A model generated the notes under the pieces. The model had not been told where the DNA came from and did no database searches. It worked only from the letters and a program-made list of their open reading frames with translations. Shown piece by piece: positions 7,308 through 61,941 of a stretch of 64,000 nucleotides of DNA. Both the position numbers and the translations under genes were made by a program. This DNA is from Candidatus Parcubacteria bacterium (GTDB lineage Bacteria; Patescibacteriota; Minisyncoccia; Minisyncoccales; JAGMDC01), in the NCBI GenBank assembly GCA_023130975.1, contig JAGMAD010000003.1, positions 1,109 through 65,108 on the forward strand. Direction: 5' to 3'. Position 1 is the first letter of the stretch. Every line of letters begins with the position of its first letter.

Positions 7308-10300
7308 ATGAAGAACGATTCGGAAAAAGAAAAAACAAAAGAAAAAACAGCTGAAATCGGTTATGTGAAGCCCAGAGAAATTACTGAAGAAATGAAAGAA
7401 TCATATATTGATTATGCTATGTCAGTAATTGTTGCTCGGGCTTTGCCTGATGTGAGGGACGGCTTAAAACCAGTTCACCGCCGAATTTTGTATGCTATGT
7501 TGGAAGATGGCTTGCGTTATGATGCTAAATTTAGAAAGTCAGCAACTGTAGTGGGCTCGGTCCTGGGCCGCTACCATCCGCACGGCGATCAGGCAGTTTA
7601 TGATTCTTTGGTGCGAATGGCACAGGATTTTTCATTGAGATATCCTTTAATTAAAGGCCAAGGCAACTTTGGTTGTTTTACTAAAGATACAAAAGTGAAG
7701 TTGACAGATGGAAGAAGTTTAGATTTTGGAGAACTTATAAAAGAGCAAAAAGAAAACAAAAGACATTGGGGTTTTACTTTTAATCCTGAATCAAAAAAAA
7801 TTGAAATTACTGAAATAAAAAATCCTCGAAAAACTAGGATAAAAGAAAAACTAATAGAGATTACATTAGACAATGAAGAAAAAATAAAATGTACATTAGA
7901 CCATCGGCTTATGACAAGAAAAGGAGATTATAAAGAGGCGAAAGATTTGAAACCAAGAGATTCTTTAATGCCCTTATATTCCGAAATTTATAATGGAGAA
8001 GAAGATAAAAACTTAAAAGGGTATGAGAGAATTTTACAGCCAGAGCAAAACAATTGGGAATTTATTCATCATTTAGCTGATGCATGGAATTTAAAGAATA
8101 AAGTTTATAAAAAGAGCGCTGGCAGAATAAGGCATCACGTAAATTTTAATAAACTAAACAATAACCCAGATAATATTTTAAGGATTCAATGGGAGAATCA
8201 TTGGAAATATCACAAAGAAATCGCCTCTAACCGACATAAAAATGATCCAGAATATGTAAAAAATATCGCGCAAGGGAAAAAAAGGTATTGGGCGCAGAAG
8301 GAGAATAGAGAGTTACGTTCAAAACTTTTATCTGAAAGAAATAAAAAAATGTGGCAAAATCCAAAATATAGAAAAATGTGGATAGATGCTAAAAAAAAGA
8401 TGTGGCAAGATTTTGAATATAAAGAATTTATGCGAGAAGCTTCAAGAAAAAATCTTAAAAATTTATGGAAAAGAAAAGATTTTCAAGAGTTAATGAGTAA
8501 ATTGAAATCAGAAGAAATGAAAAAGAGATGGCAAAACGAGGATTACCGAAATTCTTGGAAAAAAAAGATGCGAGAAATTTCTTTAAAGATTTGGTCTAAT
8601 CCAAAACATAGAGAATATATTTCTAAGTTAGCCAAGAAACAATGGGAAAATGAAGATTATAAGAACTATATGATCTCTAAATATAAAGAGAAATGGGAAA
8701 ATGACCCGAAATTTCGAGCTAAGTCTTTGAACATTATAAGTAAAAATGGAAAATTGAATCAGAAATATAGATTCCTAAAACTCTGTAAACAAATTCTTAA
8801 AAAGAATAAAAAAATCACCCAAGAAGAATATAAAAAGCGAAGTAAAAACTACGGAGGCAGTTGTATTATAAGTTTTGAGAAAGCTATTTCTAAATATTTT
8901 AACAATAAATTAGGTAATGTTTATCAAGAAATACAACAAAGCGGACTAGTCAATCACAAAGTAATAAAAGTAAAAGTTTTAAAGAAAAAAGAAGATGTTT
9001 ATGATTTAACTACTGAACCTTGGCATAACTTTCTTCTTAATGCTGGAGTGTTTGTTCATAACTCGATTGATGGAGACCCTCCATCGGCGATGAGATATTC
9101 AGAAGCGAAACTCTCAAAAATCGGCGAAGAAACATTAAAAGATATTACTAGAGAGACAGTGAATTTTAGGGATAATTATGACGGCACTCGGAAAGAGCCG
9201 ACTGTTTTGCCGTCGCCAATGCCCCAGCTCCTATTAAACGGCTCTTTGGGTATTGCTGTAGGAATGATGACTAATATCCCTCCTCATAATTTAACAGAAG
9301 TAACTAAGGCCGCTATCTATTTAATTGATAATCCTAAAACAACCACTGAAGACCTCTTTAACTTCATCAAGGGTCCGGATTTCCCTACTGGCGGCATCAT
9401 CTATAACAGAAAAGAAATTATCAGCGCTTATTGTCAAGGTAATGGACCAATAGTGATAAGGGGGAAAACAGAGGTTTCTGAAGATAAAAAAGAGAGAAAC
9501 AGGATTTTAATTACAGAAATCCCCTATCAGGTCCAGAAATCATCTTTAGTAGAACAGTTCGCTAAGTTAGTTCAAGAGAAAAAAATTATAGGGGTAAAAG
9601 ATATTAGAGATGAATCAGATAGAGAAGGTATGAGAATTGTTATTGAGCTTCAGCGAGATGCTTTCCCTCAGAAAATTCTCAATCGGCTTTATAAATTTTC
9701 TGACCTTCAAAAGACCTTTCACTTAAATATGCTTGCCTTGGTGGACGGTATCCAGCCTAAGGTTTTATCGCTTTTGGAAGTTTTAAATTACTTTGTTTTA
9801 CACCGTAAAGAAATAGTAACAAGAAGAGCAAAATATGATTTGAAAAAAGCAGAGGAAAGAGCCCATATTTTGGAAGGGCTGCATAAATGCCTGTCAAAAA
9901 TTGATGCAGTTATAAAAACAATTAAATCATCGGCTAACAGGGAAGATGCGCAAAAGAATTTAATGAAGAAGTTTAAATTAACCGAGATTCAAGCCAATGC
10001 GATTTTGGAAACAAAACTCTCTGCTTTAGCTAAATTGGAAAGAAAGAAAATTGAAGAAGAGTTAGAAGAAAAGAAGAAATTAATAAAAGAGTTAAAAACA
10101 ATTTTGAAAAGTCCTCAAAAAGTAAAGGAAGTAATAAAAAAAGAGCTTAGGGAAGTAATAGAGAATTTTGGAGATGAAAGGAAGACCAGAGTAGTTGTTC
10201 AGAAAATTGGTGAGATTGCTGAAGAGGATTTAATTCCCCAGGAAGAAACCATTATTACTTTAACTCAAGGAGGGTACATAAAAAGAGTGAATCCTAATGT

Positions 10301-11237
10301 CTATAAAATTCAGAAAAGAGGAGGTAAAGGCATTATGGGAATGAAGACCCTGGGAGAGGACATTATTGAGCATTTTCTTTTTTGCCAAACCCATGATTTT
10401 CTGCTTTTCTTTACTGATTCCGGCAAAGTTTTTAAAATTCCGGCTTATGAAATTCCTGAAGGAACAAGAGTGGCTAAAGGCAGAGGACTTTTGAATTTCT
10501 TGGAGCTTACTCCACAAGATAAGATATTATCTATCCTTCCTTTTAAGAAACAAACCCAGGGCAATAAAGAAAACCAAGAGAATGAGATGAGGTATTTGGC
10601 AATGGCAACAAAAAATGGTATGATTAAAAAAACAGTTTTAGATGAATTTGAGAATGTCAGAAAATCAGGTCTGATTGCCATTAATCTTAAAAAAGGAGAT
10701 TTGCTTAAAAGCGTCAACAGAACTTCTGGTGAAGATGAGATGATTTTGGTGACCAAAAAAGGACAGTCAATTAGATTTAAGGAGGATAATGTTCGAGCTA
10801 TGGGCAGGACAGCTGCTGGAGTGACTGGAATAAGATTAAAGAAAGCCTCTGGCCCGTCGGGCCAACGGCTCGGAGGGGATGATGAGTTGATTGGGATGGA
10901 TGTTATAAAAACTCAAAAGATAAAAGAAAAAACACAAAACTATTTAATGGTAGTGAGTGAAAATGGGTATGGGAAGAGGACTGATTTAAGAGAATATAGA
11001 TTGCAGACCAGAGGCGGCTCAGGCATAAAAACAGCCAATGTTACCTCAAAAACAGGGGATTTAGTTGCTTCCAAAGTTCTTTTTGGAGGAGAAGAAGATT
11101 TAATTGTTATTTCCCAAAAGGGCCAAATAATTAGAACTCCTATTAATTCTATTTCCATAATTAGCAGGTCTACCCAGGGTGTGAGGATAATGCGTCTGGA
11201 AAAAGGAGATAAGGTGGCATCTGGCGCCTGCATCTAA
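7308..11237 (+). CDS. gyrA: DNA gyrase subunit A, interrupted by a 463-aa intein (mature extein about 846 aa)
   Basis: The conserved GyrA N-terminus ...RYPLIKGQGNFG and SIDGDPPSAMRYSEAKL (catalytic Tyr) are separated by a Cys...His-Asn element. GyrA C-terminal beta-pinwheel repeats are present. Confidence 0.97.
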   Translation: MKNDSEKEKTKEKTAEIGYVKPREITEEMKESYIDYAMSVIVARALPDVRDGLKPVHRRILYAMLEDGLRYDAKFRKSATVVGSVLGRYHPHGDQAVYDSLVRMAQDFSLRYPLIKGQGNFGCFTKDTKVKLTDGRSLDFGELIKEQKENKRHWGFTFNPESKKIEITEIKNPRKTRIKEKLIEITLDNEEKIKCTLDHRLMTRKGDYKEAKDLKPRDSLMPLYSEIYNGEEDKNLKGYERILQPEQNNWEFIHHLADAWNLKNKVYKKSAGRIRHHVNFNKLNNNPDNILRIQWENHWKYHKEIASNRHKNDPEYVKNIAQGKKRYWAQKENRELRSKLLSERNKKMWQNPKYRKMWIDAKKKMWQDFEYKEFMREASRKNLKNLWKRKDFQELMSKLKSEEMKKRWQNEDYRNSWKKKMREISLKIWSNPKHREYISKLAKKQWENEDYKNYMISKYKEKWENDPKFRAKSLNIISKNGKLNQKYRFLKLCKQILKKNKKITQEEYKKRSKNYGGSCIISFEKAISKYFNNKLGNVYQEIQQSGLVNHKVIKVKVLKKKEDVYDLTTEPWHNFLLNAGVFVHNSIDGDPPSAMRYSEAKLSKIGEETLKDITRETVNFRDNYDGTRKEPTVLPSPMPQLLLNGSLGIAVGMMTNIPPHNLTEVTKAAIYLIDNPKTTTEDLFNFIKGPDFPTGGIIYNRKEIISAYCQGNGPIVIRGKTEVSEDKKERNRILITEIPYQVQKSSLVEQFAKLVQEKKIIGVKDIRDESDREGMRIVIELQRDAFPQKILNRLYKFSDLQKTFHLNMLALVDGIQPKVLSLLEVLNYFVLHRKEIVTRRAKYDLKKAEERAHILEGLHKCLSKIDAVIKTIKSSANREDAQKNLMKKFKLTEIQANAILETKLSALAKLERKKIEEELEEKKKLIKELKTILKSPQKVKEVIKKELREVIENFGDERKTRVVVQKIGEIAEEDLIPQEETIITLTQGGYIKRVNPNVYKIQKRGGKGIMGMKTLGEDIIEHFLFCQTHDFLLFFTDSGKVFKIPAYEIPEGTRVAKGRGLLNFLELTPQDKILSILPFKKQTQGNKENQENEMRYLAMATKNGMIKKTVLDEFENVRKSGLIAINLKKGDLLKSVNRTSGEDEMILVTKKGQSIRFKEDNVRAMGRTAAGVTGIRLKKASGPSGQRLGGDDELIGMDVIKTQKIKEKTQNYLMVVSENGYGKRTDLREYRLQTRGGSGIKTANVTSKTGDLVASKVLFGGEEDLIVISQKGQIIRTPINSISIISRSTQGVRIMRLEKGDKVASGACI
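7674..9062 (+). mobile_element. intein (aa 123-585 of GyrA) with an HNH-type endonuclease region and about 8 basic W/Y tandem repeats
   Basis: Starts CFTKDTKVKL (Cys1). Block B is CTLDHRLMT and the end is GVFVHN followed by Ser+1. HNH-like region: GRIRHHVNFNKLNNNPDNILRIQWENHWKYH. Repeats span aa 312-472. Confidence 0.9.
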
Positions 11238-12743: not shown

Positions 12744-12830
12744 CATTGGGTTTCAAGGACGCCGAAGGCGGACGAAGACCCCGCACCGAATTTATTCTGG
12801 TGCGGGGCAAATCCCTTCCTCGGCACAAAC

Positions 12831-12863: not shown

Positions 12864-13427
12864 TTATGTTTTTATTGCTACTTTTCTTTTTCTTTTCCTC
12901 TGAATTTTCGGAATTCTGATAGTTAAAATCCCATCTTTCATCATTGCTTCAACTCGGGAATTATCCACTTCTTCTTGCAAAATGATTCTTTTAGAAAAAG
13001 GTCCCCAATAGCATTCTTGATAAAAGTAATTTTTTTCCTCGTCTTCGTCTGGTTTTTCCCTGTTTCCTTCTATGGTTAGAATGTCATTTTCAATAACAAT
13101 ATCCAAGTTTTCTGGTTTCACTCCAGCCACAGCGGACTGAATTACTAAGTCAGTTTTGGTTTGATAAACATCAACCGCTAATTCCCCTTTCTGCTCAAAC
13201 CATTTTTCCTTGCTTGCTGAAGCAAAGGCGGGTTTTTCTTCTTTCTTTATTTCGGTTTTAATTTCCTCTTTAATTTTTACCTTTTTCTTTTTAGATTTTG
13301 GTTTTTCCTCGCTCTCCATCTTTCGCTCTACTTTCAACGGAGCTTCGGACGGCAAAGCCGAATCCTTGATGAGAGAAGGTTTTTCTTCAATCCCGATATT
13401 TTTTTTTAATTTTTCTAAAAAAGACAC
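12864..13427 (-). CDS. Hsp20/alpha-crystallin family small heat-shock protein with Lys/Glu-rich N-terminal extension
   Basis: C-terminal ACD pattern LAVDVYQTKTDLVIQSAVAGVKPENLDIVIENDILTIEGNR...DGILTIRIPK. Confidence 0.85.
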   Translation of the reverse strand: MSFLEKLKKNIGIEEKPSLIKDSALPSEAPLKVERKMESEEKPKSKKKKVKIKEEIKTEIKKEEKPAFASASKEKWFEQKGELAVDVYQTKTDLVIQSAVAGVKPENLDIVIENDILTIEGNREKPDEDEEKNYFYQECYWGPFSKRIILQEEVDNSRVEAMMKDGILTIRIPKIQRKRKRKVAIKT

Positions 13428-30039: not shown

Positions 30040-30293
30040 TAATACTTATTTTAATAAAATTTTTCCTTTTAGTCAATTTTTTACCCCGTAAAATCCTGAA
30101 AGCTCTGGACTTTAGGCCAGAGATGAAAGAATTAGAAAATACAATAAAGAAAAAGCCCTGTTCTTTAGGGCAGGGATATACGGGGTTTACTTGCTTAAAA
30201 CCAAATATTGACCAAAAGGCCTAAAGTCGACTTTGGACTTTGTGTCAATATCTAATATAGTGTATAATTATGGAAGAAGTGATATAATAAAAT

Positions 30294-30414
30294 AATGAAC
30301 TACCCCGCCCCGCCAGCTGGCGGGGCGGGGCAGACCTTCTCGCCTCGCTGAAGCTACGGCGAAGCGGGCGGGCAAGTTCTTTCGGCGGCGGGGATGAGAG
30401 CCGCCGAAATAAAA
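30294..30414. repeat. GC-rich structured element, copy A (conserved ends, variable internal hairpins)
   Basis: aatgaactacccc-[hairpin ccccgccccgccagctggcggggcgggg ...]-gggcaagttctttcggcggc-[loop]-gccgccgaaataaaa. The reverse-complement homolog lies at 50849-50954. Confidence 0.7.
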
Positions 30415-37646: not shown

Positions 37647-37677
37647 ATTTTTTAAATTAAATATGGATTGAATGAAT

Positions 37678-37733
37678 CTCGGATAATCTAATTCGTTTAT
37701 CAAGAGTTTGGTAGATAAATTAGGCTATCCGAG
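37678..37733 (+). ncRNA. conserved 5'-leader hairpin, copy L1 (cis-regulatory RNA candidate)
   Basis: ctcggataatctaatt...aaattaggctatccgag: ~16 bp stem, ~24-nt loop. Homologs at 39503-39552 and 46295-46358. Confidence 0.55.
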
Positions 37734-37792
37734 ACACCAGAATAGCGAGAACCTTGGATTAGCCATTGAATAAAAAGGAAGTAAAAGAAAAA

Positions 37793-39502: not shown

Positions 39503-39552
39503 GGATAGCCTAATTTGTTTATCAAAAGTTTGACAAATAAATTAGGCTATCC
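39503..39552 (+). ncRNA. conserved 5'-leader hairpin, copy L2
   Basis: ggatagcctaattt-gtttatcaaaagtttgacaaat-aaattaggctatcc (14-bp perfect stem), followed by the conserved atccgttgaaNNgaaaggagga RBS block. Confidence 0.55.
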
Positions 39553-46263: not shown

Positions 46264-46294
46264 ATTTTTTCAATAAAATATGGATTGAATGAAT

Positions 46295-46358
46295 CTCGGA
46301 TAACTTAATTTGTTTGTCAAAATATCAAAAGTTTGGTAGATAAATTAGGCTATCCGAG
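46295..46358 (+). ncRNA. conserved 5'-leader hairpin, copy L3
   Basis: ctcggataacttaattt...taaattaggctatccgag. Confidence 0.55.
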
Positions 46359-46418
46359 AGAACAAAATAGCGAGAACCTCGGGTAGATCCGTTGAACGAA
46401 AAGGAGGAAAAAGAAAAA

Positions 46419-50848: not shown

Positions 50849-50954
50849 TTTTATTTCGGCGGCGAGAATACCCCGCTGCAAGCAGTAGGGATGAAAGCCG
50901 CCGAAAGAACTTGCCCGAAGGGATACCACGTCCTTTAGGGTGGGGTAGTTCATT
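50849..50954. repeat. GC-rich structured element, copy B (inverted relative to 30294-30414)
   Basis: ttttatttcggcggc-[loop]-gccgccgaaagaacttgccc-[hairpins]-ggggtagttcatt, then tttttt. Sits after valS. Confidence 0.7.
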
Positions 50955-51436: not shown

Positions 51437-52744
51437 ATGATAAAGGATTCAATCAAAAAATTTATTCCTGTTTTTTTACTTGATTTTTATCACTTTTCTT
51501 TAGCTGGTTTAGGTGCTTTTCTGTATGGCTTTCCTGCTAAAAAAATTAAAGTTATTGGAGTTACTGGCACTAATGGAAAAACAACAGTGGTTAGTTTAGC
51601 AGCCAAGATTTTGGAAGAAACCGGCTACAAAGTTGCTTCTATCTCCTCAATTAAATTTAAGCTTGGCGAAAAAGAATGGAAAAATGACTTAAAAATGACA
51701 ATGCCCGGCCGTTTGAAATTACAAAAGTTTTTGAGGCAGGCCGTAAAGGCAGGATGCCGGTATGTTGTTTTAGAGGTGACTTCTGAAGGAATAAAACAAC
51801 ACCGCCATCGTTTTATTGATTTTGATACAGCTGTTTTTACTAATTTAACACCAGAGCATATAGAAAGCCATGGGTCCTTTGAAAAGTATAAAGAAGCCAA
51901 GGGAAAGCTTTTTCAAGCCACAAAAAATATCCATATCATTAATTTAGATGACAAAAATGCTGAATACTTTTTGAAATTTCCAGCCAGAAAAAAATATACT
52001 TATGGATTAGAAAAAGGAGATATCAATACTAAAAATACCCAATTTAAGCTTAATTTGTTTGGGGAATTCAATATCTATAATTCGCTGGCAGCAATTTGTA
52101 TAGGATTATCGCAGGGAGTTGATTTAGAAACCAGCCAGAATGCTTTAGAAAAAATAAAAGCAATTCCCGGCAGAATGGAAAAAGTAATAGGGGAGCCATT
52201 TACCCCGCACCTTTTGCGGACTGCACCTCGTGCAAAAAAGCAAAATATGTCCGCAAAAGGTGCGGGGTTTACAGTCATAGTGGATTACGCTCATACACCG
52301 GATGCTTTAGAAAATGTTTATAAAACTATTCAAGGATCAATGGTCAATAGTCAAGAGTCAAAAGTTATATGTGTTCTCGGCTCTGCTGGCGGCGGAAGGG
52401 ATAAATGGAAAAGACCAGAAATGGGGAAAATTGCTGGCAAGTATTGCGATGAAATTATTTTAACCAACGAAGACCCTTATGATGAAAATCCGCTTAAAAT
52501 TTTAAAAGAAATTGAAAATGGCATTCGCACTAATTCGCGTTTAGATTCGCGTAGATTTACTTCTATTCATAAGATTTTAGATAGAAGAGAAGCAATCAAA
52601 AAAGCCCTGACCTTGGCAAAATTCGGGGATATAGTAATTATCACTGGCAAGGGTTGCGAACCCTGGATGTGTGTGGCTGATGGCAAAAAAATACCCTGGG
52701 ACGATAGACAGATAGTAAAAGAAGAACTTAGAGCACATAAATAA
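51437..52744 (+). CDS. murE: Mur ligase, MurE-like (UDP-MurNAc-tripeptide synthetase), carrying a 23-codon palindromic insertion
   Basis: VIGVTGTNGKTT, VLEVTSEG, DYAHTPDALENV, LTNEDP. Confidence 0.85.
   Translation: MIKDSIKKFIPVFLLDFYHFSLAGLGAFLYGFPAKKIKVIGVTGTNGKTTVVSLAAKILEETGYKVASISSIKFKLGEKEWKNDLKMTMPGRLKLQKFLRQAVKAGCRYVVLEVTSEGIKQHRHRFIDFDTAVFTNLTPEHIESHGSFEKYKEAKGKLFQATKNIHIINLDDKNAEYFLKFPARKKYTYGLEKGDINTKNTQFKLNLFGEFNIYNSLAAICIGLSQGVDLETSQNALEKIKAIPGRMEKVIGEPFTPHLLRTAPRAKKQNMSAKGAGFTVIVDYAHTPDALENVYKTIQGSMVNSQESKVICVLGSAGGGRDKWKRPEMGKIAGKYCDEIILTNEDPYDENPLKILKEIENGIRTNSRLDSRRFTSIHKILDRREAIKKALTLAKFGDIVIITGKGCEPWMCVADGKKIPWDDRQIVKEELRAHK
52203..52267. mobile_element. MITE-like 65-nt palindromic element inserted in frame in murE, flanked by TTTA on both sides
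   Basis: ccccgcaccttttgcggac (19 nt) ... gtccgcaaaaggtgcgggg perfect inverted repeat with a 27-nt loop. 65+4 nt = 23 codons (TPHLLRTAPRAKKQNMSAKGAGF). Confidence 0.7.
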
Positions 52745-52778: not shown

Positions 52779-54233
52779 ATGATAAACAAAAAAGATTTTA
52801 TAAAGATAAGTGATTATCTTTGGGAAATTCCTAAAAGTTTCAGTCAGTCCACCAGCCGGCGGATGCGAGTGCCTGCTCGAATTTATGCTTCGGAAAAAAT
52901 TCTGGAAGATATTTTCAGAGACAGATCTATTTCTCAATTGATAAATGGAACAACCCTGCCAGGAATTGTAAGGCATGGAATTGCTATGCCTGATTGCCAT
53001 GAAGGTTATGCGGTTCCCATTGGTTTTGTCGGAGCGATTAAAATACCAGAAGGAGTTATTTCACCTGGTGCTTGCGGTTTTGACATTAATTGCGGGATGC
53101 GATTGTTAAAATCAGAACATAAAGAAAAAGAAATCAAACCTTATTTAGATGAATTGGCAACAGGAATTCAAAAACAAGTTCCCTCTGGTTTAGGCAGAGG
53201 AAGGCAAATAAAACTTTCAATTAAAGAAATTGATAAAATTTTAGAAAAAGGAGTGCCGGGATTAGTAGAAAAAGGATACGGCGAAAAAGAAGATGTAATA
53301 AATTGCGAAGCAAATGGTAAATTAGATTGGGCAGATGCTTTTGTTGTTTCAGATTATGCTAAGAATCGGGGCAGGGACCAAGTTGGGACTCTTGGAAGCG
53401 GAAATCATTTTTTAGAAGTCCAAAAAGTAGATGAAATTTTTGATGAGGAAGTAGCTAAAGTTTTTGGGTTATTTAAAAATCAAGTTGTGATAATGATTCA
53501 TACTGGAAGCCGAGGCCTTGGCCATCAAGTTTGCACTGATTATTTAAAAACAATGATTCCAGCTATGCAGAAATACAATATTAAAGTCCCGGATAAAGAA
53601 TTTGCTTGTGTACCTTTTAGTTCATCAGAAGGTCAAAGATATTTTAAAGCCATGGCTTCTGCTGCTAATTATGCTTGGGCAAACAGGCAAATGATTGTTT
53701 ATTATACTCGTCTTGCATGGAAAAAAGTTTTGGGCAAAAAAAAGAGATTAGAATTATTATATGATGTGGCTCATAATATTATTAAAAAAGAAACATATAA
53801 AATTGATGGCGCGGAAGTAAAGCTTGCTGTTCATCGCAAGGGAGCTACTCGGGCTTTTCCGCCGGGCCATCCGGAAATCCCAGAGAAATATCGCTTAGTT
53901 GGCCAGCCGGTTTTAATTCCTGGCTCAATGGGAACAGCTTCTTATGTTTTAAATGGCCAGAAAACAGGGGAGGAAGCATTTTATTCTACCAGTCATGGTG
54001 CTGGACGAACAATGTCTCGCCATCAAGCAGTAAGGCAAATTTCTGGACAAAAAGTCATAAACGAGCTAAAATCAAAAGGTATTATTGTAAAATGCCGGTC
54101 AGATAGAGGAATTGCTGAAGAAGCGCCAATGGCTTATAAAAATATTGATGAAATAGTAGAAATTGTTCACAGAGCTGGTCTTTCAAAGAAAGTTGCTAAA
54201 CTGGTGCCATTAGCTGTTATCAAAGGAGAATGA
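52779..54233 (+). CDS. rtcB: RNA-splicing ligase RtcB
   Basis: MPDCHEGY, GSGNHF, HTGSRGLG, SHGAGR; 484 aa. Confidence 0.95.
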   Translation: MINKKDFIKISDYLWEIPKSFSQSTSRRMRVPARIYASEKILEDIFRDRSISQLINGTTLPGIVRHGIAMPDCHEGYAVPIGFVGAIKIPEGVISPGACGFDINCGMRLLKSEHKEKEIKPYLDELATGIQKQVPSGLGRGRQIKLSIKEIDKILEKGVPGLVEKGYGEKEDVINCEANGKLDWADAFVVSDYAKNRGRDQVGTLGSGNHFLEVQKVDEIFDEEVAKVFGLFKNQVVIMIHTGSRGLGHQVCTDYLKTMIPAMQKYNIKVPDKEFACVPFSSSEGQRYFKAMASAANYAWANRQMIVYYTRLAWKKVLGKKKRLELLYDVAHNIIKKETYKIDGAEVKLAVHRKGATRAFPPGHPEIPEKYRLVGQPVLIPGSMGTASYVLNGQKTGEEAFYSTSHGAGRTMSRHQAVRQISGQKVINELKSKGIIVKCRSDRGIAEEAPMAYKNIDEIVEIVHRAGLSKKVAKLVPLAVIKGE

Positions 54234-54835: not shown

Positions 54836-56488
54836 TTAAAGAAATTTAACCATATAAGTGTCTTTTAATTTATATCCTGCTTTGCGAAAGAAATCTCTTA
54901 CTCCAATTCCTGAGATCACAGTAATTTTAGATAGTTTAAATTTCTCTTTTGTGATTTTTTCTGCTTCTCTGATGAGTTTTTTACCAAGTCCTTTATGTTG
55001 AGCCGCCATTAAATCTATTGAGGTTGAACCTCGATAGATTGGTATCATTTGTCCATAAGTGTGAAGCTCCCTGATAATAGCAGAATTTTTTAAAGCCAAA
55101 ATAGAATACCGAGACCCGACCCCGGGTCTGGGAGCCCGAGGTCGGGTCTCGGTGCTACTTTGAAGGGGGATACGGAGACGTAATAAACTATAAAGTTTTG
55201 TTCTGTTTTTATTTTCAAAACTCAAAAATATTTCTTTGCTATTTGACGCTTCATAGTCCTGGCTGAATAAATAGATTTTTTCTTTTGGATTGTATTTTTC
55301 TTTTACTTCTCTACATCTTATACAATGACAGGTTGAGCCTCTTTTCTTCATCTCTTTTTGAACCACTTGTCTTAGATTAGAAATTTTACTGCCAGATTCA
55401 ATATGATAAGCAGGTATGTCTCTAAATAATCGAGCTGTCCGAACCCAATATGGCAATATTTCTTTTATTTGAATTAAAAGATTGATTAACTGTTTATCAG
55501 AATACGACTTATACTTACCTTGCTTCCAAAGTTGGTAAAGTTTTGTATTTTTACAAACAACACAAGGATAAATTTTTAACCAGTCCGGCTTGAAATCCGG
55601 ATTCTGAAAAATTTCTTTAAGAGATGAAAAGTCCTTTTTTGGATTAGAGCCAGGCAAATTTGGCATTATTTGATACATTATTTTAAACCCGGTCTCTTTT
55701 AAGAGCTTCGTTGCCTTTATAGTTTCTTTTACAGAATGGCCTCTCTGGCATTTTTCTAAAATGTTATCGTATGTGGTCTGTACTCCCAATTCTACCATTG
55801 TTATTCCCAACTTTCTTAAATTAAGAATTTCCTTCTCATTAATTAAATCAGGTCTTGTTTCTATGCTTATTCCAACAATCCTATGTTTTGCTTTTTCGTT
55901 CTTCTTTTGCTCTTTTTCTAAAGATTTAATTTTTCGCGTAGTTTTGCGTTCATTTTCGCGTTGTTCTGCGTTACACGCTGCGAAGCAGCGTGTAATAAAC
56001 CAAGATTGGTATTTCTTTGGATAGGCAGTCCAGCTTCCACCGATTATTCTCAATTCAATTTTATCTGTTGGATGGCCTTGAATTTCCAAACTTCTAATTC
56101 TGTCTATAACTTGAAGATATGGATTAAATTTGTTTCTTTTTGCTCTTTCTACTGCTGGTTCTCCAGAAAGATAGCTTTTGGGCAGGCCTTTTTCTTGAGG
56201 GCAATAAATACATTTTCCCGGACAGGGATAGGACTTAGTTAAAACCGAGACCACTACTACTCCAGACAAACTCCTAATTTTTCTTTTTCTCAAGAGTTCT
56301 TCTAAAATTTCGTTCTTTTTGAGCCCTTTATTTTTTACTAAATTATGGTATGCTTTAAGTAGTTCAACATTAGAAGGACAGGAAATTTTGTATCTCTTGG
56401 CTATTTTTCTTTTAATCACAGCCAAGCCCTCCAAAGTTTTAACTTTATTTCTTAGCAGTTTTTTGATTATTAATTTCTCGATCTCCAT
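54836..56488 (-). CDS. elp3: Elp3-type radical SAM + GNAT tRNA-modification enzyme
   Basis: CPGKCIYCP rSAM cluster, TRPD, C-terminal GNAT (QHKGLGKKLI); 550 aa with palindromic in-frame insertions. Confidence 0.9.
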   Translation of the reverse strand: MEIEKLIIKKLLRNKVKTLEGLAVIKRKIAKRYKISCPSNVELLKAYHNLVKNKGLKKNEILEELLRKRKIRSLSGVVVVSVLTKSYPCPGKCIYCPQEKGLPKSYLSGEPAVERAKRNKFNPYLQVIDRIRSLEIQGHPTDKIELRIIGGSWTAYPKKYQSWFITRCFAACNAEQRENERKTTRKIKSLEKEQKKNEKAKHRIVGISIETRPDLINEKEILNLRKLGITMVELGVQTTYDNILEKCQRGHSVKETIKATKLLKETGFKIMYQIMPNLPGSNPKKDFSSLKEIFQNPDFKPDWLKIYPCVVCKNTKLYQLWKQGKYKSYSDKQLINLLIQIKEILPYWVRTARLFRDIPAYHIESGSKISNLRQVVQKEMKKRGSTCHCIRCREVKEKYNPKEKIYLFSQDYEASNSKEIFLSFENKNRTKLYSLLRLRIPLQSSTETRPRAPRPGVGSRYSILALKNSAIIRELHTYGQMIPIYRGSTSIDLMAAQHKGLGKKLIREAEKITKEKFKLSKITVISGIGVRDFFRKAGYKLKDTYMVKFL

Positions 56489-58243: not shown

Positions 58244-58534
58244 CCCCCCACCACTTTTTATGTTTTATGTATATCTTTTGAAAAGCAAAAAAGATAAAAA
58301 GTTTTATATTGGATTAACCTCGAATCTAAAAAGAAGATTTAAAGAACATAATAATGGGTATACAAGATCTACAAAGGGCAGAAGGCCATTTGATATAATA
58401 TACTATGAGGCATATCTAAATTTTGAAGATGCGAAAACAAGAGAATCAAGATTAAAGAAATTCAAGAATTCATATACAGAGTTAAAAAAGAGAATACCCC
58501 GTAGCTTAAAAGAAGTATAAAAAGTGGTGGGGGG
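58244..58534. mobile_element. single-gene GIY-YIG cassette bounded by 16-bp perfect inverted repeats
   Basis: ccccccaccacttttt (58244-58259) abuts the ATG. aaaaagtggtgggggg (58519-58534) overlaps the TAA. Confidence 0.55.
58260..58520 (+). CDS. GIY-YIG nuclease family protein (86 aa)
   Basis: FYVYLLKSKKDKKFYIGLTSNLKRRFKEHNNG. Confidence 0.85.
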   Translation: MFYVYLLKSKKDKKFYIGLTSNLKRRFKEHNNGYTRSTKGRRPFDIIYYEAYLNFEDAKTRESRLKKFKNSYTELKKRIPRSLKEV

Positions 58535-58630
58535 AAAGGTCGAAAAAGTAGATATTAGATTTTTGATGTTGGATAATAGAAATTAAATCTAATATCTATA
58601 ATCTATTATCTAATATCTAATTCTAAATTT

Positions 58631-60672: not shown

Positions 60673-61941
60673 ATGAAATTTATAGCTGATTTTCATCTTC
60701 ATTCTAAATATTCAAGAGCGACCAGCCCGCAAATGGATTTAGAGAATATGGCTCAATGGGCGAAAATAAAAGGTATAGATATTTTAGGGACCGGTGATTT
60801 CACCCACCCGGAATGGTTCAAAGAACTGAAAGAAAAATTAGAACCAGCAGAACCAGGACTTTTTAAATTAAAAAACAGTGATTCTGAAACTCGTTTTATT
60901 TTAACCGCTGAAATTAGTTGTATTTACTCAAAAGGCGGAAAGGTTAGAAAAATTCACATTGTGGTTTTTGCTCCTTCTTTGGAAATCGTAGAAAAAATCA
61001 ATACTCAATTGGGATGGATTGGCAATTTGAAAGCCGATGGTAGACCAATTTTGGGATTGGATGCTAAGGAATTAGCAAAGATTGTTTTAAGTATTTCAAA
61101 AGATTGCTTGATTGTACCTGCTCATTGTATGACCCCATGGTTCGGCATCTTTGGTTCTAAGTCAGGGTTTGATTCTATTGAAGAATGCTTTGAAGATTAT
61201 TCAAAACATATTTATGCAATAGAAAGTGGTTTAAGCGCGGACCCAGCAATGCTTTGGCGAATACCTGATGGCCGAAAGCTTACTATAATCTCAAACAGTG
61301 ACGCGCATAGTCCAGCTAAGCTTGGAAGGGAAGCAAATGTTTTTGAAGGCGAGGAATTAAGTTATAATTTGATAGTTCAGGCAATAAAAGCCGGGGGAGG
61401 CCCGGCCTCCCCCAATTTCTTGAAACTGATTTACACAATTGAATTTTATCCTCAAGAAGGGAAGTACCATTATGACGGCCATCGCAATTGCGGAATTAGC
61501 TTATCGCCTTCAGAGGCAAAAAAATATAATAATATCTGTCCTAATTGCGGTAAGCCATTAACTATTGGAGTTTTAAACCGAGTAGAGGAATTAGCAGATA
61601 AACCAGAGGGATTTAAACCAGAAGAAGCTATTCCTTTTAAAAGTTTAGTCCCCTTAGAAGAAGTAATTGCTGAAAGTTTGGGTCAAAATACAGGAACGAA
61701 GCAAGTAGAAGCAGAGTATAAAAATTTAATTGAGAAATTTGGTCAGGAGTTTAAGATTTTATTAGATATTTCCAAGACAGATTTAGAATCAGCAACTTTG
61801 CCAGAAATTGCTGAAGGAATCATAAGAGTAAGACAGGGAAAAGTTAATGTTGAGCCCGGTTATGACGGCGTTTTTGGCAAAGTAAGAATTTTTTCTAAAG
61901 CAGAACAAAAAGAATTACCAAACCAAAAAACTTTATTCTAA
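60673..61941 (+). CDS. endonuclease Q-like PHP-domain protein (TIGR00375 family)
   Basis: FIADFHLHSKYSRATSPQMDL...GTGDFTHPEW, Zn-finger CPNCGK. Confidence 0.75.
   Translation: MKFIADFHLHSKYSRATSPQMDLENMAQWAKIKGIDILGTGDFTHPEWFKELKEKLEPAEPGLFKLKNSDSETRFILTAEISCIYSKGGKVRKIHIVVFAPSLEIVEKINTQLGWIGNLKADGRPILGLDAKELAKIVLSISKDCLIVPAHCMTPWFGIFGSKSGFDSIEECFEDYSKHIYAIESGLSADPAMLWRIPDGRKLTIISNSDAHSPAKLGREANVFEGEELSYNLIVQAIKAGGGPASPNFLKLIYTIEFYPQEGKYHYDGHRNCGISLSPSEAKKYNNICPNCGKPLTIGVLNRVEELADKPEGFKPEEAIPFKSLVPLEEVIAESLGQNTGTKQVEAEYKNLIEKFGQEFKILLDISKTDLESATLPEIAEGIIRVRQGKVNVEPGYDGVFGKVRIFSKAEQKELPNQKTLF

Follow-up and report, generated by a model that had tools for sequence, protein, structure and literature searches.

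A GC-rich palindromic element, probably mobile, in frame in murE of a Parcubacteria genome

The DNA considered here is a stretch of 64,000 nt from Candidatus Parcubacteria (contig JAGMAD010000003.1), called the window in the following. Its murE gene contains a 65-nt palindromic sequence which does not interrupt the reading frame, and the question arises whether this sequence belongs to the gene or has been inserted into it as a mobile element. Genomes of the candidate phyla radiation (CPR, Patescibacteria) are tiny and streamlined, and little mobile DNA is usually ascribed to them. According to the analysis presented here, the 65-nt sequence is probably (we would put it at about 0.78) one copy of a mobile element that is small, palindromic, GC-rich and non-coding, and that was recently inserted in murE of this Parcubacteria lineage.

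The palindrome and its insertion site in murE

The gene and the parts of the palindrome, to which no strand is assigned, are the following.

51437..52744, + strand: murE open reading frame (ORF), 435 aa, with Mur_ligase_M and Mur_ligase_C; identified from the ORF list, the Pfam domains of homologues, matches to MurE structures in the PDB and the invariant residues, which are kept
52199..52202: left TTTA copy of the duplicated target, read from the sequence; the empty site of the relative L016 (see below) has a single TTTA
52203..52267: the 65-nt palindromic element, 55% G+C, from sequence, repeat search and folding; 82.8 bits with the covariance model R1 (see below)
52203..52221: left arm CCCCGCACCTTTTGCGGAC; the same 19-mer occurs in the loci L005, L008 and L011 (see below)
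52222..52234: inner small hairpin TGCAC-CTC-GTGCA, which adjoins the left arm, from the minimum free energy structures
52235..52248: A-rich unpaired tail of the loop, AAAAAGCAAAATAT, which varies between copies
52249..52267: right arm GTCCGCAAAAGGTGCGGGG, from sequence and repeat search
52268..52271: right TTTA copy of the duplicated target, from the sequence and the empty site of L016

The order across positions 52199-52271 is TTTA, CCCCGCACCTTTTGCGGAC, a 27-nt loop TGCACCTCGTGCAAAAAAGCAAAATAT, GTCCGCAAAAGGTGCGGGG and again TTTA. An earlier note, made from the letters alone, had described an element of 65 nt with perfect terminal inverted repeats (TIRs) of 19 nt, a loop of 27 nt and TTTA on both sides, and sequence and repeat search confirm this description. 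The repeat search reports arms of 20 nt (52202-52221 and 52249-52268, 100% complementary and 27 nt apart), since it counts one further pair, formed by the flanking A and T. Within the window the 19-mer arm is found at two places only, even if up to three mismatches are allowed, while 0.00 occurrences are expected in shuffled sequences. The element folds with -30 kcal/mol as DNA and -44.7 kcal/mol as RNA (z about -9.5), a value reached by none of 200 shuffles, and its G+C content of 55% compares to about 33% for the genome and the window. None of the six frames of the murE copy contains a stop codon (three shuffling schemes give P of about 0.003-0.012). As expected for a small element without transposase, it contains only short open frames and no gene.

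The left arm holds a 5-bp dyad of its own, CCGCA/TGCGG, and such an inner dyad of the arm was flagged by a scan for terminators. The element does not correspond to an intrinsic terminator: the scan reports only the 5-bp dyad of the right arm, on the minus strand, and the element has a loop of 27 nt, is followed by only TTT and lies in the middle of an ORF. No Rfam family is assigned to it at the gathering threshold, and the matches below threshold are generic miRNA-type hairpins with 14-28 bits against thresholds of 41-106.

Element and one TTTA together amount to 69 nt, or 23 codons, which are in frame in murE and encode TPHLLRTAPRAKKQNMSAKGAGF, so that the ORF stays intact as had been claimed. 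The predicted junction peptides of a MurE protein with the insert read through are VIGEPFTPHLLR and GAGFTVIVDYAHTPDALENVYK. None of the 119 nearest MurE homologues, which are 82-62% identical and originate from Parcubacteria or related CPR, contains the 23 residues. These homologues read PGRME..xP/F(T/K)V.VDYA with P joined directly to F (the slash marks the site), and only the protein of the window has the additional segment, which is also missing from the MurE structures solved to date among the PDB matches. The assumption that the segment is an insertion is well supported by these comparisons. All 130 columns which are invariant in an alignment of 44 sequences of the family are kept in the window MurE.

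An empty site is found in L016, a metagenome-assembled genome (MAG) of the Minisyncoccales (GCA_049642725.1), whose MurE is 80% identical and whose gene order is the same as in the window (UbiA, HisK, ..., response regulator, murE, rtcB, radical SAM). The site reads CCA/TTTA/CAG, with one TTTA between GATAAACCA and CAGTTATAGTGGATTAC (GATAAACCA-TTTA-CAGTTATAGTGGATTACGCTCAT), and its flanks are about 90% identical to those of the window. Because L016 has a single TTTA, the difference is a clean insertion of 69 nt, by which one TTTA became two. The target-site duplication, which the earlier note had deduced from the flanks and which is a hallmark of transposable elements of the miniature inverted-repeat type (MITEs), is thereby demonstrated against an empty site.

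The insert is carried by two ENA assemblies, two Logan assemblies from separate runs, an NCBI contig of 284,771 bp (GCA_030629575.1, DAOVOQ010000001.1, where the window corresponds to about positions 15022-79021 by coordinate arithmetic) and a strain variant with 99% identity. It is not an assembly artefact, because several assemblies and the variant agree.

In an AlphaFold2 model of the window MurE (mean predicted local distance difference test score, pLDDT, of 75.6) the residues 254-276 are the sole segment below 50. They lie between the strands 248-251 and 279-283, which is the turn of the first beta-hairpin of Mur_ligase_C. A surface loop had been expected at the insertion site, and the position at a turn between two strands, together with the low pLDDT, agrees with it. 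Judging from the open frame and the model, the insert is probably translated as a disordered basic surface loop.

Copies in other genomes and in the source genome

The exact 19-mer arm was searched in one genome per species (596 Gb), in the JGI metagenomes and in IMG/VR, which yielded six, five and no loci, respectively. Three of these loci contain complete elements with both arms, so that four copies are known including the one in murE.

L008, a Saccharibacteria MAG: 64 nt, flanks TCAAA/TCAAA, in frame in a 587-aa PCMT+YceG fusion
L011, a JGI contig with 43% G+C: 65 nt, flanks TTTA/TTTC, in frame in a 622-aa PMT/TPR membrane protein
L005, another Saccharibacteria MAG, positions 1816-1896: 81 nt, flanks TCAAA/TCAAA, intergenic and directly upstream of a start codon

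The other eight loci (L006, L007, L009, L010 and L012-L015) are single arms in GC-rich DNA. They were rejected as chance matches because a partner arm is missing and because their number corresponds to the approximately 4-7 chance matches that were estimated.

When brought into one orientation, all four copies consist of an arm, an inner hairpin (4-6 bp with a 3-nt loop), a variable tail of about 14 nt and the second arm. The inner hairpins differ from copy to copy, with TGCAC-CTC-GTGCA in murE, GGCGC-TTC-GCGCC in L008, and ATGC-TTT-GCGT and TGGCGC-GCA-GCACCA in the other two; a covariation of the inner stem is suggestive, as far as four sequences can indicate it. In L005 an additional 13-nt copy of the terminal tip, AAAAGGTGCGGGG, follows right after the left arm, which suggests a rearranged or nested element.

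Three of the four copies are intragenic. The insert of L008 adds PAPFTDKSAGGAKRQSAKGAGFD within the conserved sequence ...APFD/KILAGAAA... and cuts the Pfam match to PCMT in two, and the insert of L011 adds TPHLLRTDALRETEGKSAKGAGF. The peptides resemble each other: (T)PHLLRT...SAKGAG(F) is common to the window and L011, and L008 has PAPFTD...SAKGAGF. Five of the six frames are open in L011 and likewise in L008, which is not significant for either copy individually. Each of the three genic copies adds 69 nt, either as 65+4 or as 64+5, whereas the 86 nt added by the intergenic L005 are not divisible by three. Such a pattern is to be expected from selection against frameshifts. That the palindrome belongs to a dispersed family, as had been suspected, is supported by the same arms in other CPR genomes, where they recur at three loci unrelated to each other; at two of these the element is in frame in another gene. 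Hosts from Parcubacteria and Saccharibacteria carry identical arms, which points to horizontal spread or to a strong constraint on the termini.

A covariance model built from the four copies (R1) was run with filters off on the window, on extensions of 10 kb at each side and on the CPR loci. Apart from the four known copies it returned generic GC hairpins with about 20 bits or less. The scan for further copies that the earlier note had proposed was negative for the part of the source genome covered, where a second full copy, as it would be typical for a multicopy MITE, was not found in about 84 kb (the window and its extensions), and positive for other CPR genomes with their three copies. One site in the window had been named as sharing the termini of the murE element.

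12779..12807, no strand assigned: intergenic 29-nt hairpin CCCCGCACC...GGTGCGGGG, 3' of tRNA-Leu; R1 score of 21.5 bits, like other GC-rich hairpins

A hairpin with the same 9-nt tips does exist there, at 12779-12807 rather than 12783-12811, and nothing beyond these 9 nt is shared with the murE element. It possibly belongs to the same broad class of hairpins; the common tips leave the relation uncertain, and the hairpin is not a copy of the murE element. A deletion derivative of the murE element was considered and rejected, the loop being unrelated and only the 9-nt tips matching. The region 12745-12830, from tRNA-Leu(tag) to a bidirectional terminator, contains two GC-rich hairpins, CGCC-GAAG-GCG and CCCCGCACC...GGTGCGGGG, and is without Rfam match.

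The single copy in 84 kb of the source genome would also be compatible with a sequence that never moved, either a lineage-specific local expansion of a MurE loop whose DNA is palindromic by chance, or an assembly chimera. We regard this as scarcely credible, because the same 19-nt arms and the same architecture recur in unrelated genes of unrelated genomes, the G+C content deviates from that of the genome (55% versus 33%), the empty site of L016 is clean with a single TTTA, and at least five independent assemblies agree.

The open frame of the genic copies bears on another explanation, according to which the hairpin is inserted but not translated. The ribosome would bypass it from TTT to TTT, as happens in T4 gene 60 and with the mitochondrial byp elements; alternatively, the hairpin would be excised from the RNA and the ends rejoined, for example by RtcB, and wild-type MurE would result in either case. 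The codon context TTT-A is indeed the same on each side of the element, the RNA hairpin is highly stable (-44.7 kcal/mol), and rtcB is the next gene (52779-54233). Yet all three genic copies are a multiple of three in length and open in the frame of their host, a needless constraint for a sequence that is skipped or removed. Furthermore no stop or rare codon follows the putative take-off codon, a bulge-helix-bulge or ribozyme motif is missing, and there is no Rfam match above threshold. The synteny of murE and rtcB is identical in the insert-free L016, so the adjacency is coincidental and a functional link to rtcB is rejected. Bypass or excision is accordingly considered very improbable, though slightly less so than an origin in place.

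Possible modes of movement and the GIY-YIG cassettes

The insertion has created a second TTTA and lengthened murE by exactly 69 nt, with the ORF kept intact. Having no enzyme of its own, a mobile palindrome would depend on a nuclease or transposase acting in trans, which would recognise the conserved 19-20-nt termini or the hairpin or cruciform formed by them. A short staggered cut of this enzyme at T/A-rich targets would give rise to direct repeats of 4-5 nt. Within essential genes only those insertions would survive that have a total length divisible by three and no stop in the host frame, and in murE the element would be read as a basic, probably disordered loop of 23 residues, tolerated at the beta-hairpin turn of the C-terminal domain.

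Several observations weigh against this interpretation. Only one full copy is present in the 84 kb of source genome, and the exact 19-mer scans of very large collections gave four copies only; either the family is rare or the arms are more variable than an exact scan detects. In none of the loci examined does a pair of termini of the murE element enclose a gene. The predicted translation of the insert rests on its open frame. Finally, the direct repeats vary in length (4, 3-4, 5 and 5), and the TCAAA found in both Saccharibacteria copies is harder to reconcile with a simple fixed stagger than with a specific target or a non-classical mechanism.

A non-classical mechanism of this sort would be single-strand transposition of the HUH/Y1 type, as in the palindrome-associated transposable elements (PATEs) of IS200/IS605 or the repetitive extragenic palindromic (REP) sequences and their Y1 transposases (RAYTs). 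Insertion would take place 3' of TTTA or TCAAA, the second flank would be the cleavage site at the right end of the element, and the mobile unit would be a hairpin plus TTTA or TCAAA of 69 nt. TCAAA occurs on both sides of both Saccharibacteria copies although their sites are unrelated, TTTA is on the left of the two other copies, and the inserted unit of every genic copy amounts to 69 nt in spite of different lengths of element and repeat. In addition, each arm has a small hairpin of its own, CCGCA-N5-TGCGG, like the REP units of a REPIN. On the other hand, the two ends form perfect inverted repeats of each other, a feature not needed by Y1 systems, and a conserved 5' tetranucleotide of the GTAG type is absent. 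If the copies are oriented by the inner hairpin, the flank of L005 is TTTGA, the reverse complement of that of L008, and a symmetric double-strand insertion fits this better. No Y1 or RAYT gene was noticed at any locus, the loci being short and not systematically scanned. Taken together, this mechanism appears unlikely, but it is the most serious competitor of a double-strand insertion of a mobile palindrome.

Several further searches for relatives of the palindrome gave negative results. The plasmid and phage collections contain no meaningful match to the murE element. In the viral contigs the 15-mer core was found at 115 loci, all of them single arms in coding DNA, and the tips with a spacer of 30-60 nt at 47 loci, all of them other hairpin families or GC-rich chance matches. 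A 68-aa composite of three reading frames of the arms yielded no candidate in a protein search, which, apparently due to its sparse word index, missed even the window MurE. With a profile made from the frame-A peptides of both directions, one spurious repeat protein was obtained from 1.84 billion representative proteins; this outcome carries little weight, because cluster representatives without insert hide recent insertions.

A candidate relative of a different kind, or a possible origin of the enzyme which moves the element, is encoded in the window itself.

58244..58534, + strand: GIY-YIG cassette bounded by an inverted repeat, termini CCCCCCACCACTTTT, with an 86-aa ORF at 58260-58520; not present at the orthologous site of L016

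The ORF is tightly bracketed by the inverted repeat CCCCCCACCACTTTTTAT / ATAAAAAGTGGTGGGGGG, and its absence from L016 constitutes a presence/absence polymorphism. More than 100 GIY-YIG homologues of 83-98 aa were found, mostly in Patescibacteria. The repeat (A/T)CCCCCCACCACTTTT(T) brackets the ORF in five further protein clusters with different neighbours (P0139, P0129, P0137, P0153 and P0143, the ORF of P0143 running through the right repeat). These bracketed homologues are 65-73% identical to the GIY-YIG protein of the window and come from at least five other CPR genomes (loci L179-L201 and L208-L217). Exceptions are P0190 with ATATATCCCCACACCAATT, P0222 with an unrelated repeat and P0156 with direct repeats. 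The GIY-YIG gene bounded by inverted repeats looks like a minimal mobile cassette.

The murE element ends with (A)CCCCGCACCTTTT, which differs from the common tip of the cassettes by one substitution and a gap of 2 nt before TTTT; at the position of the G in the murE element the cassette tips carry C or A. Within the window, CCCCNCACC-N0-2-TTTT occurs only in the murE element and the cassette (four matches against 0.01 expected), a statistic which is partly circular since the motif was defined post hoc. One cassette, L192, is flanked by TTTA/TTTA as is the murE element. A cassette with tips of the G type (CCCCGCACC) was not found in the loci and viral scans examined: the cassette-style pattern with such tips (CCCCGCACC..TTTTATGT) gave eight matches in the viral scan, all due to chance, and the pattern with C-type tips gave none. 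These resemblances suggest a tentative link between the murE element and the cassettes. The murE element may be the ORF-less miniature of a new class, whose full form would be a cassette of about 290 nt with a stand-alone GIY-YIG nuclease of 83-98 aa between (A/T)CCCC-N-CACC-TTTT repeats. The ends, as hairpin or cruciform, and targets rich in T/A would be cut by this nuclease or by a related one, and both forms would in this way be spread across Patescibacteria, also in frame into essential genes. We consider this wider hypothesis possible, with the odds clearly against it.

Some further observations concern the cassettes, and the first two of them, like the flanks of L192, speak for the link. 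At L179-L188 (about 2541-2578) a hairpin consisting of the repeat only, CCCCCCACCACTTTT-CGCA-AAAAGTGGTGAGGGGG, is in frame in ligA (NAD-dependent DNA ligase, ORF start 2232). The active-site motif KxDG follows directly downstream of this hairpin, and a full cassette is located about 800 nt away. In L228, a locus of the source genome, a hairpin ATCCCCACCTTTT-CCTTTCAGGC-AAAAAGTGGGGAT at 7750-7787 separates T2SSF from a pilin gene; it is about 1.6 kb upstream of where the window starts. The same position is occupied by a full GIY-YIG cassette in L211/L212, and the L228 hairpin may be a footprint or a mini-element. A 23S_rRNA_IVP-family (PF05635) gene at 591-941 is part of a type IV pilus/pseudopilin cluster, and such clusters hold the GIY-YIG cassette in other CPR genomes. 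The sequence AAA(A)GGTCGA follows directly after the right repeat of the cassette in three contexts (window 58535-58545, L189 and L211). It recurs at the empty cassette site of L016 (about 13290-13305) and upstream of a pilin gene (L228, about 7895-7905), and its role may be that of a preferred target or of a regulatory motif.

Other palindromes were observed in the window as well. A GC-rich hairpin of 46 nt, ACCGAGACCCGACCCCGGG / CCCGAGGTCGGGTCTCGGT, lies at 55108-55153 in a radical-SAM/ELP3-like gene (54836-56488, - strand) and coincides with 21 additional aa in frame compared to L016. At 61393-61413 a perfect GC palindrome, GGGGGAGGCCCGGCCTCCCCC, in a PHP/MJ0043_C gene (60673-61941, + strand) coincides with 18 additional nt (AGGGPA, +6 aa) in frame compared to L016. 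For both sites, insertion rather than deletion is deduced from composition, with L016 as the single comparator. From the sequences they suggest that insertions of GC-rich hairpins into ORFs may recur in this lineage. Two intergenic hairpins, at about 30380-30410 and at 50854-50910, have common tips, TTTCGGCGGC...GCCGCCGAAA; the former belongs to a very GC-rich cluster of three hairpins (30287-30411, -73.8 kcal/mol) which adjoins tRNA-Pro/Gly. A family of AT-rich palindromes, TCTCGGATAA.TTAATT.GTTT.TCAAA / TTTG..A.AAATTAGGCTATCCGAGA, is present at three sites (37677-37734, 39503-39552 and 46294-46359). The gyrA gene (about 7308-11237; in L228 from 16718) encodes 1309 aa and contains an intein, with Pfam Intein_splicing between two DNA_topoisoIV matches. 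Outside the source genome, a distinct palindromic family AAGGTT(T/C)CCCCCGCACCCCC(C)TTCCTT...AAGGAAGGGGGTGCGGGGGAAACCTT was seen in IMG/VR (L023, L029, L039 and L042, 35-40% G+C), with two copies on one 75-kb contig.

Significance and comparison with known palindromic elements

A selfish palindrome would thus reside in an essential peptidoglycan gene, with sister copies in other housekeeping genes of a different CPR class. The phenomenon of protein-coding palindromes, which is best known from the Rickettsia palindromic elements (RPEs), is thereby indicated for the CPR too, and such insertions are one possible origin of some unexplained lineage-specific insertions in CPR proteins. Annotation and structure prediction should consider that such loops may be parasitic DNA and not functional innovations. 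If the link to the GIY-YIG cassettes were true, an undescribed transposition machinery built on a minimal GIY-YIG nuclease would be indicated. The interest of the murE element rests on its host group, on the conservation of the arms across classes and on this possible connection. Full-text searches, whose coverage is incomplete, found neither a publication on MITEs or palindromic elements in CPR, Patescibacteria, Saccharibacteria or Parcubacteria, nor a description of repeat-bounded GIY-YIG cassettes.

RPEs are about 100-150 bp long and fall into ten Rickettsia-specific families, with copy numbers that go up to tens in a genome (Ogata et al. 2000, 2002, via PMC10969869). Like them, the murE element is a small selfish palindrome of a reduced AT-rich genome, which is found in frame in unrelated housekeeping ORFs and also in an intergenic copy. 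RPEs are translated as an additional peptide segment compatible with the fold of the protein, and the same is predicted for the murE insert from its sequence. The precedent of the RPEs, to which the earlier note had pointed, is borne out insofar as all three genic copies are in frame and have peptides in common. The element does not belong to an RPE family by its size (64-65 nt) and its patescibacterial host; it is of low copy number in 84 kb and, in contrast to RPEs, has sharp TIRs of 19 nt and a proven short target duplication.

The bacterial MITEs and related repeats (Correia/CREE, ERIC, RUP, BOX, Nezha; PMC10969869) resemble the murE element in a length below 100 nt, TIRs, short target repeats, the absence of transposase coding and occasional in-frame fusions with ORFs. 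In contrast to them it has no known parent insertion sequence with matching ends, its direct repeats are inconstant in length, its copy number is apparently low, and its arms are conserved across class-level lineages. The label MITE-like is therefore appropriate with respect to the small size, the missing transposase ORF, the TIRs and the target duplication, but neither multiple copies in 84 kb of the genome nor an autonomous partner at the loci examined were found. A MITE in the strict sense is unproven.

REPINs are extragenic and present in high copy number, have a conserved 5' motif of the GTAG type and co-occur with a RAYT (Y1) gene. With REPs, bacterial interspersed mosaic elements (BIMEs) and REPINs the murE element shares the two inverted units with short GC-rich dyads of their own, the long hairpin and the variable spacer. 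It is not assigned to them, since its ends lack GTAG, three of the four copies are intragenic and the source genome has a single copy in 84 kb. The recurrent flanks TCAAA and TTTA are as for the fixed target of an IS200/IS605 PATE, but the ends are perfect TIRs and the polarity of the flank is reversed between L005 and L008.

The mobile GC clusters of yeast mitochondria are GC-rich palindromes in AT-rich DNA with short A/T-rich duplications and are sometimes located in protein-coding genes which they do not destroy, as is the optional in-frame cluster in var1. The byp elements, which are related to them, are bypassed and not translated. Both are organellar and have other sequences, and the open frame of the murE element argues for translation.

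The GIY-YIG cassettes are similar to the murE element in their (A/T)CCCC-N-CACC-(AC)-TTTT termini, in having GC-rich tips in AT-rich genomes, in their presence/absence polymorphism, in the TTTA/TTTA flanks of L192 and in the repeat-only mini-hairpins in frame in ligA (L179-L188). They differ in that an ORF of 83-98 aa is placed exactly between the repeats, whereas the murE element has no ORF. The murE element is apparently a new family, so far undescribed in the CPR, of a kind that is already known from the RPEs and MITEs.

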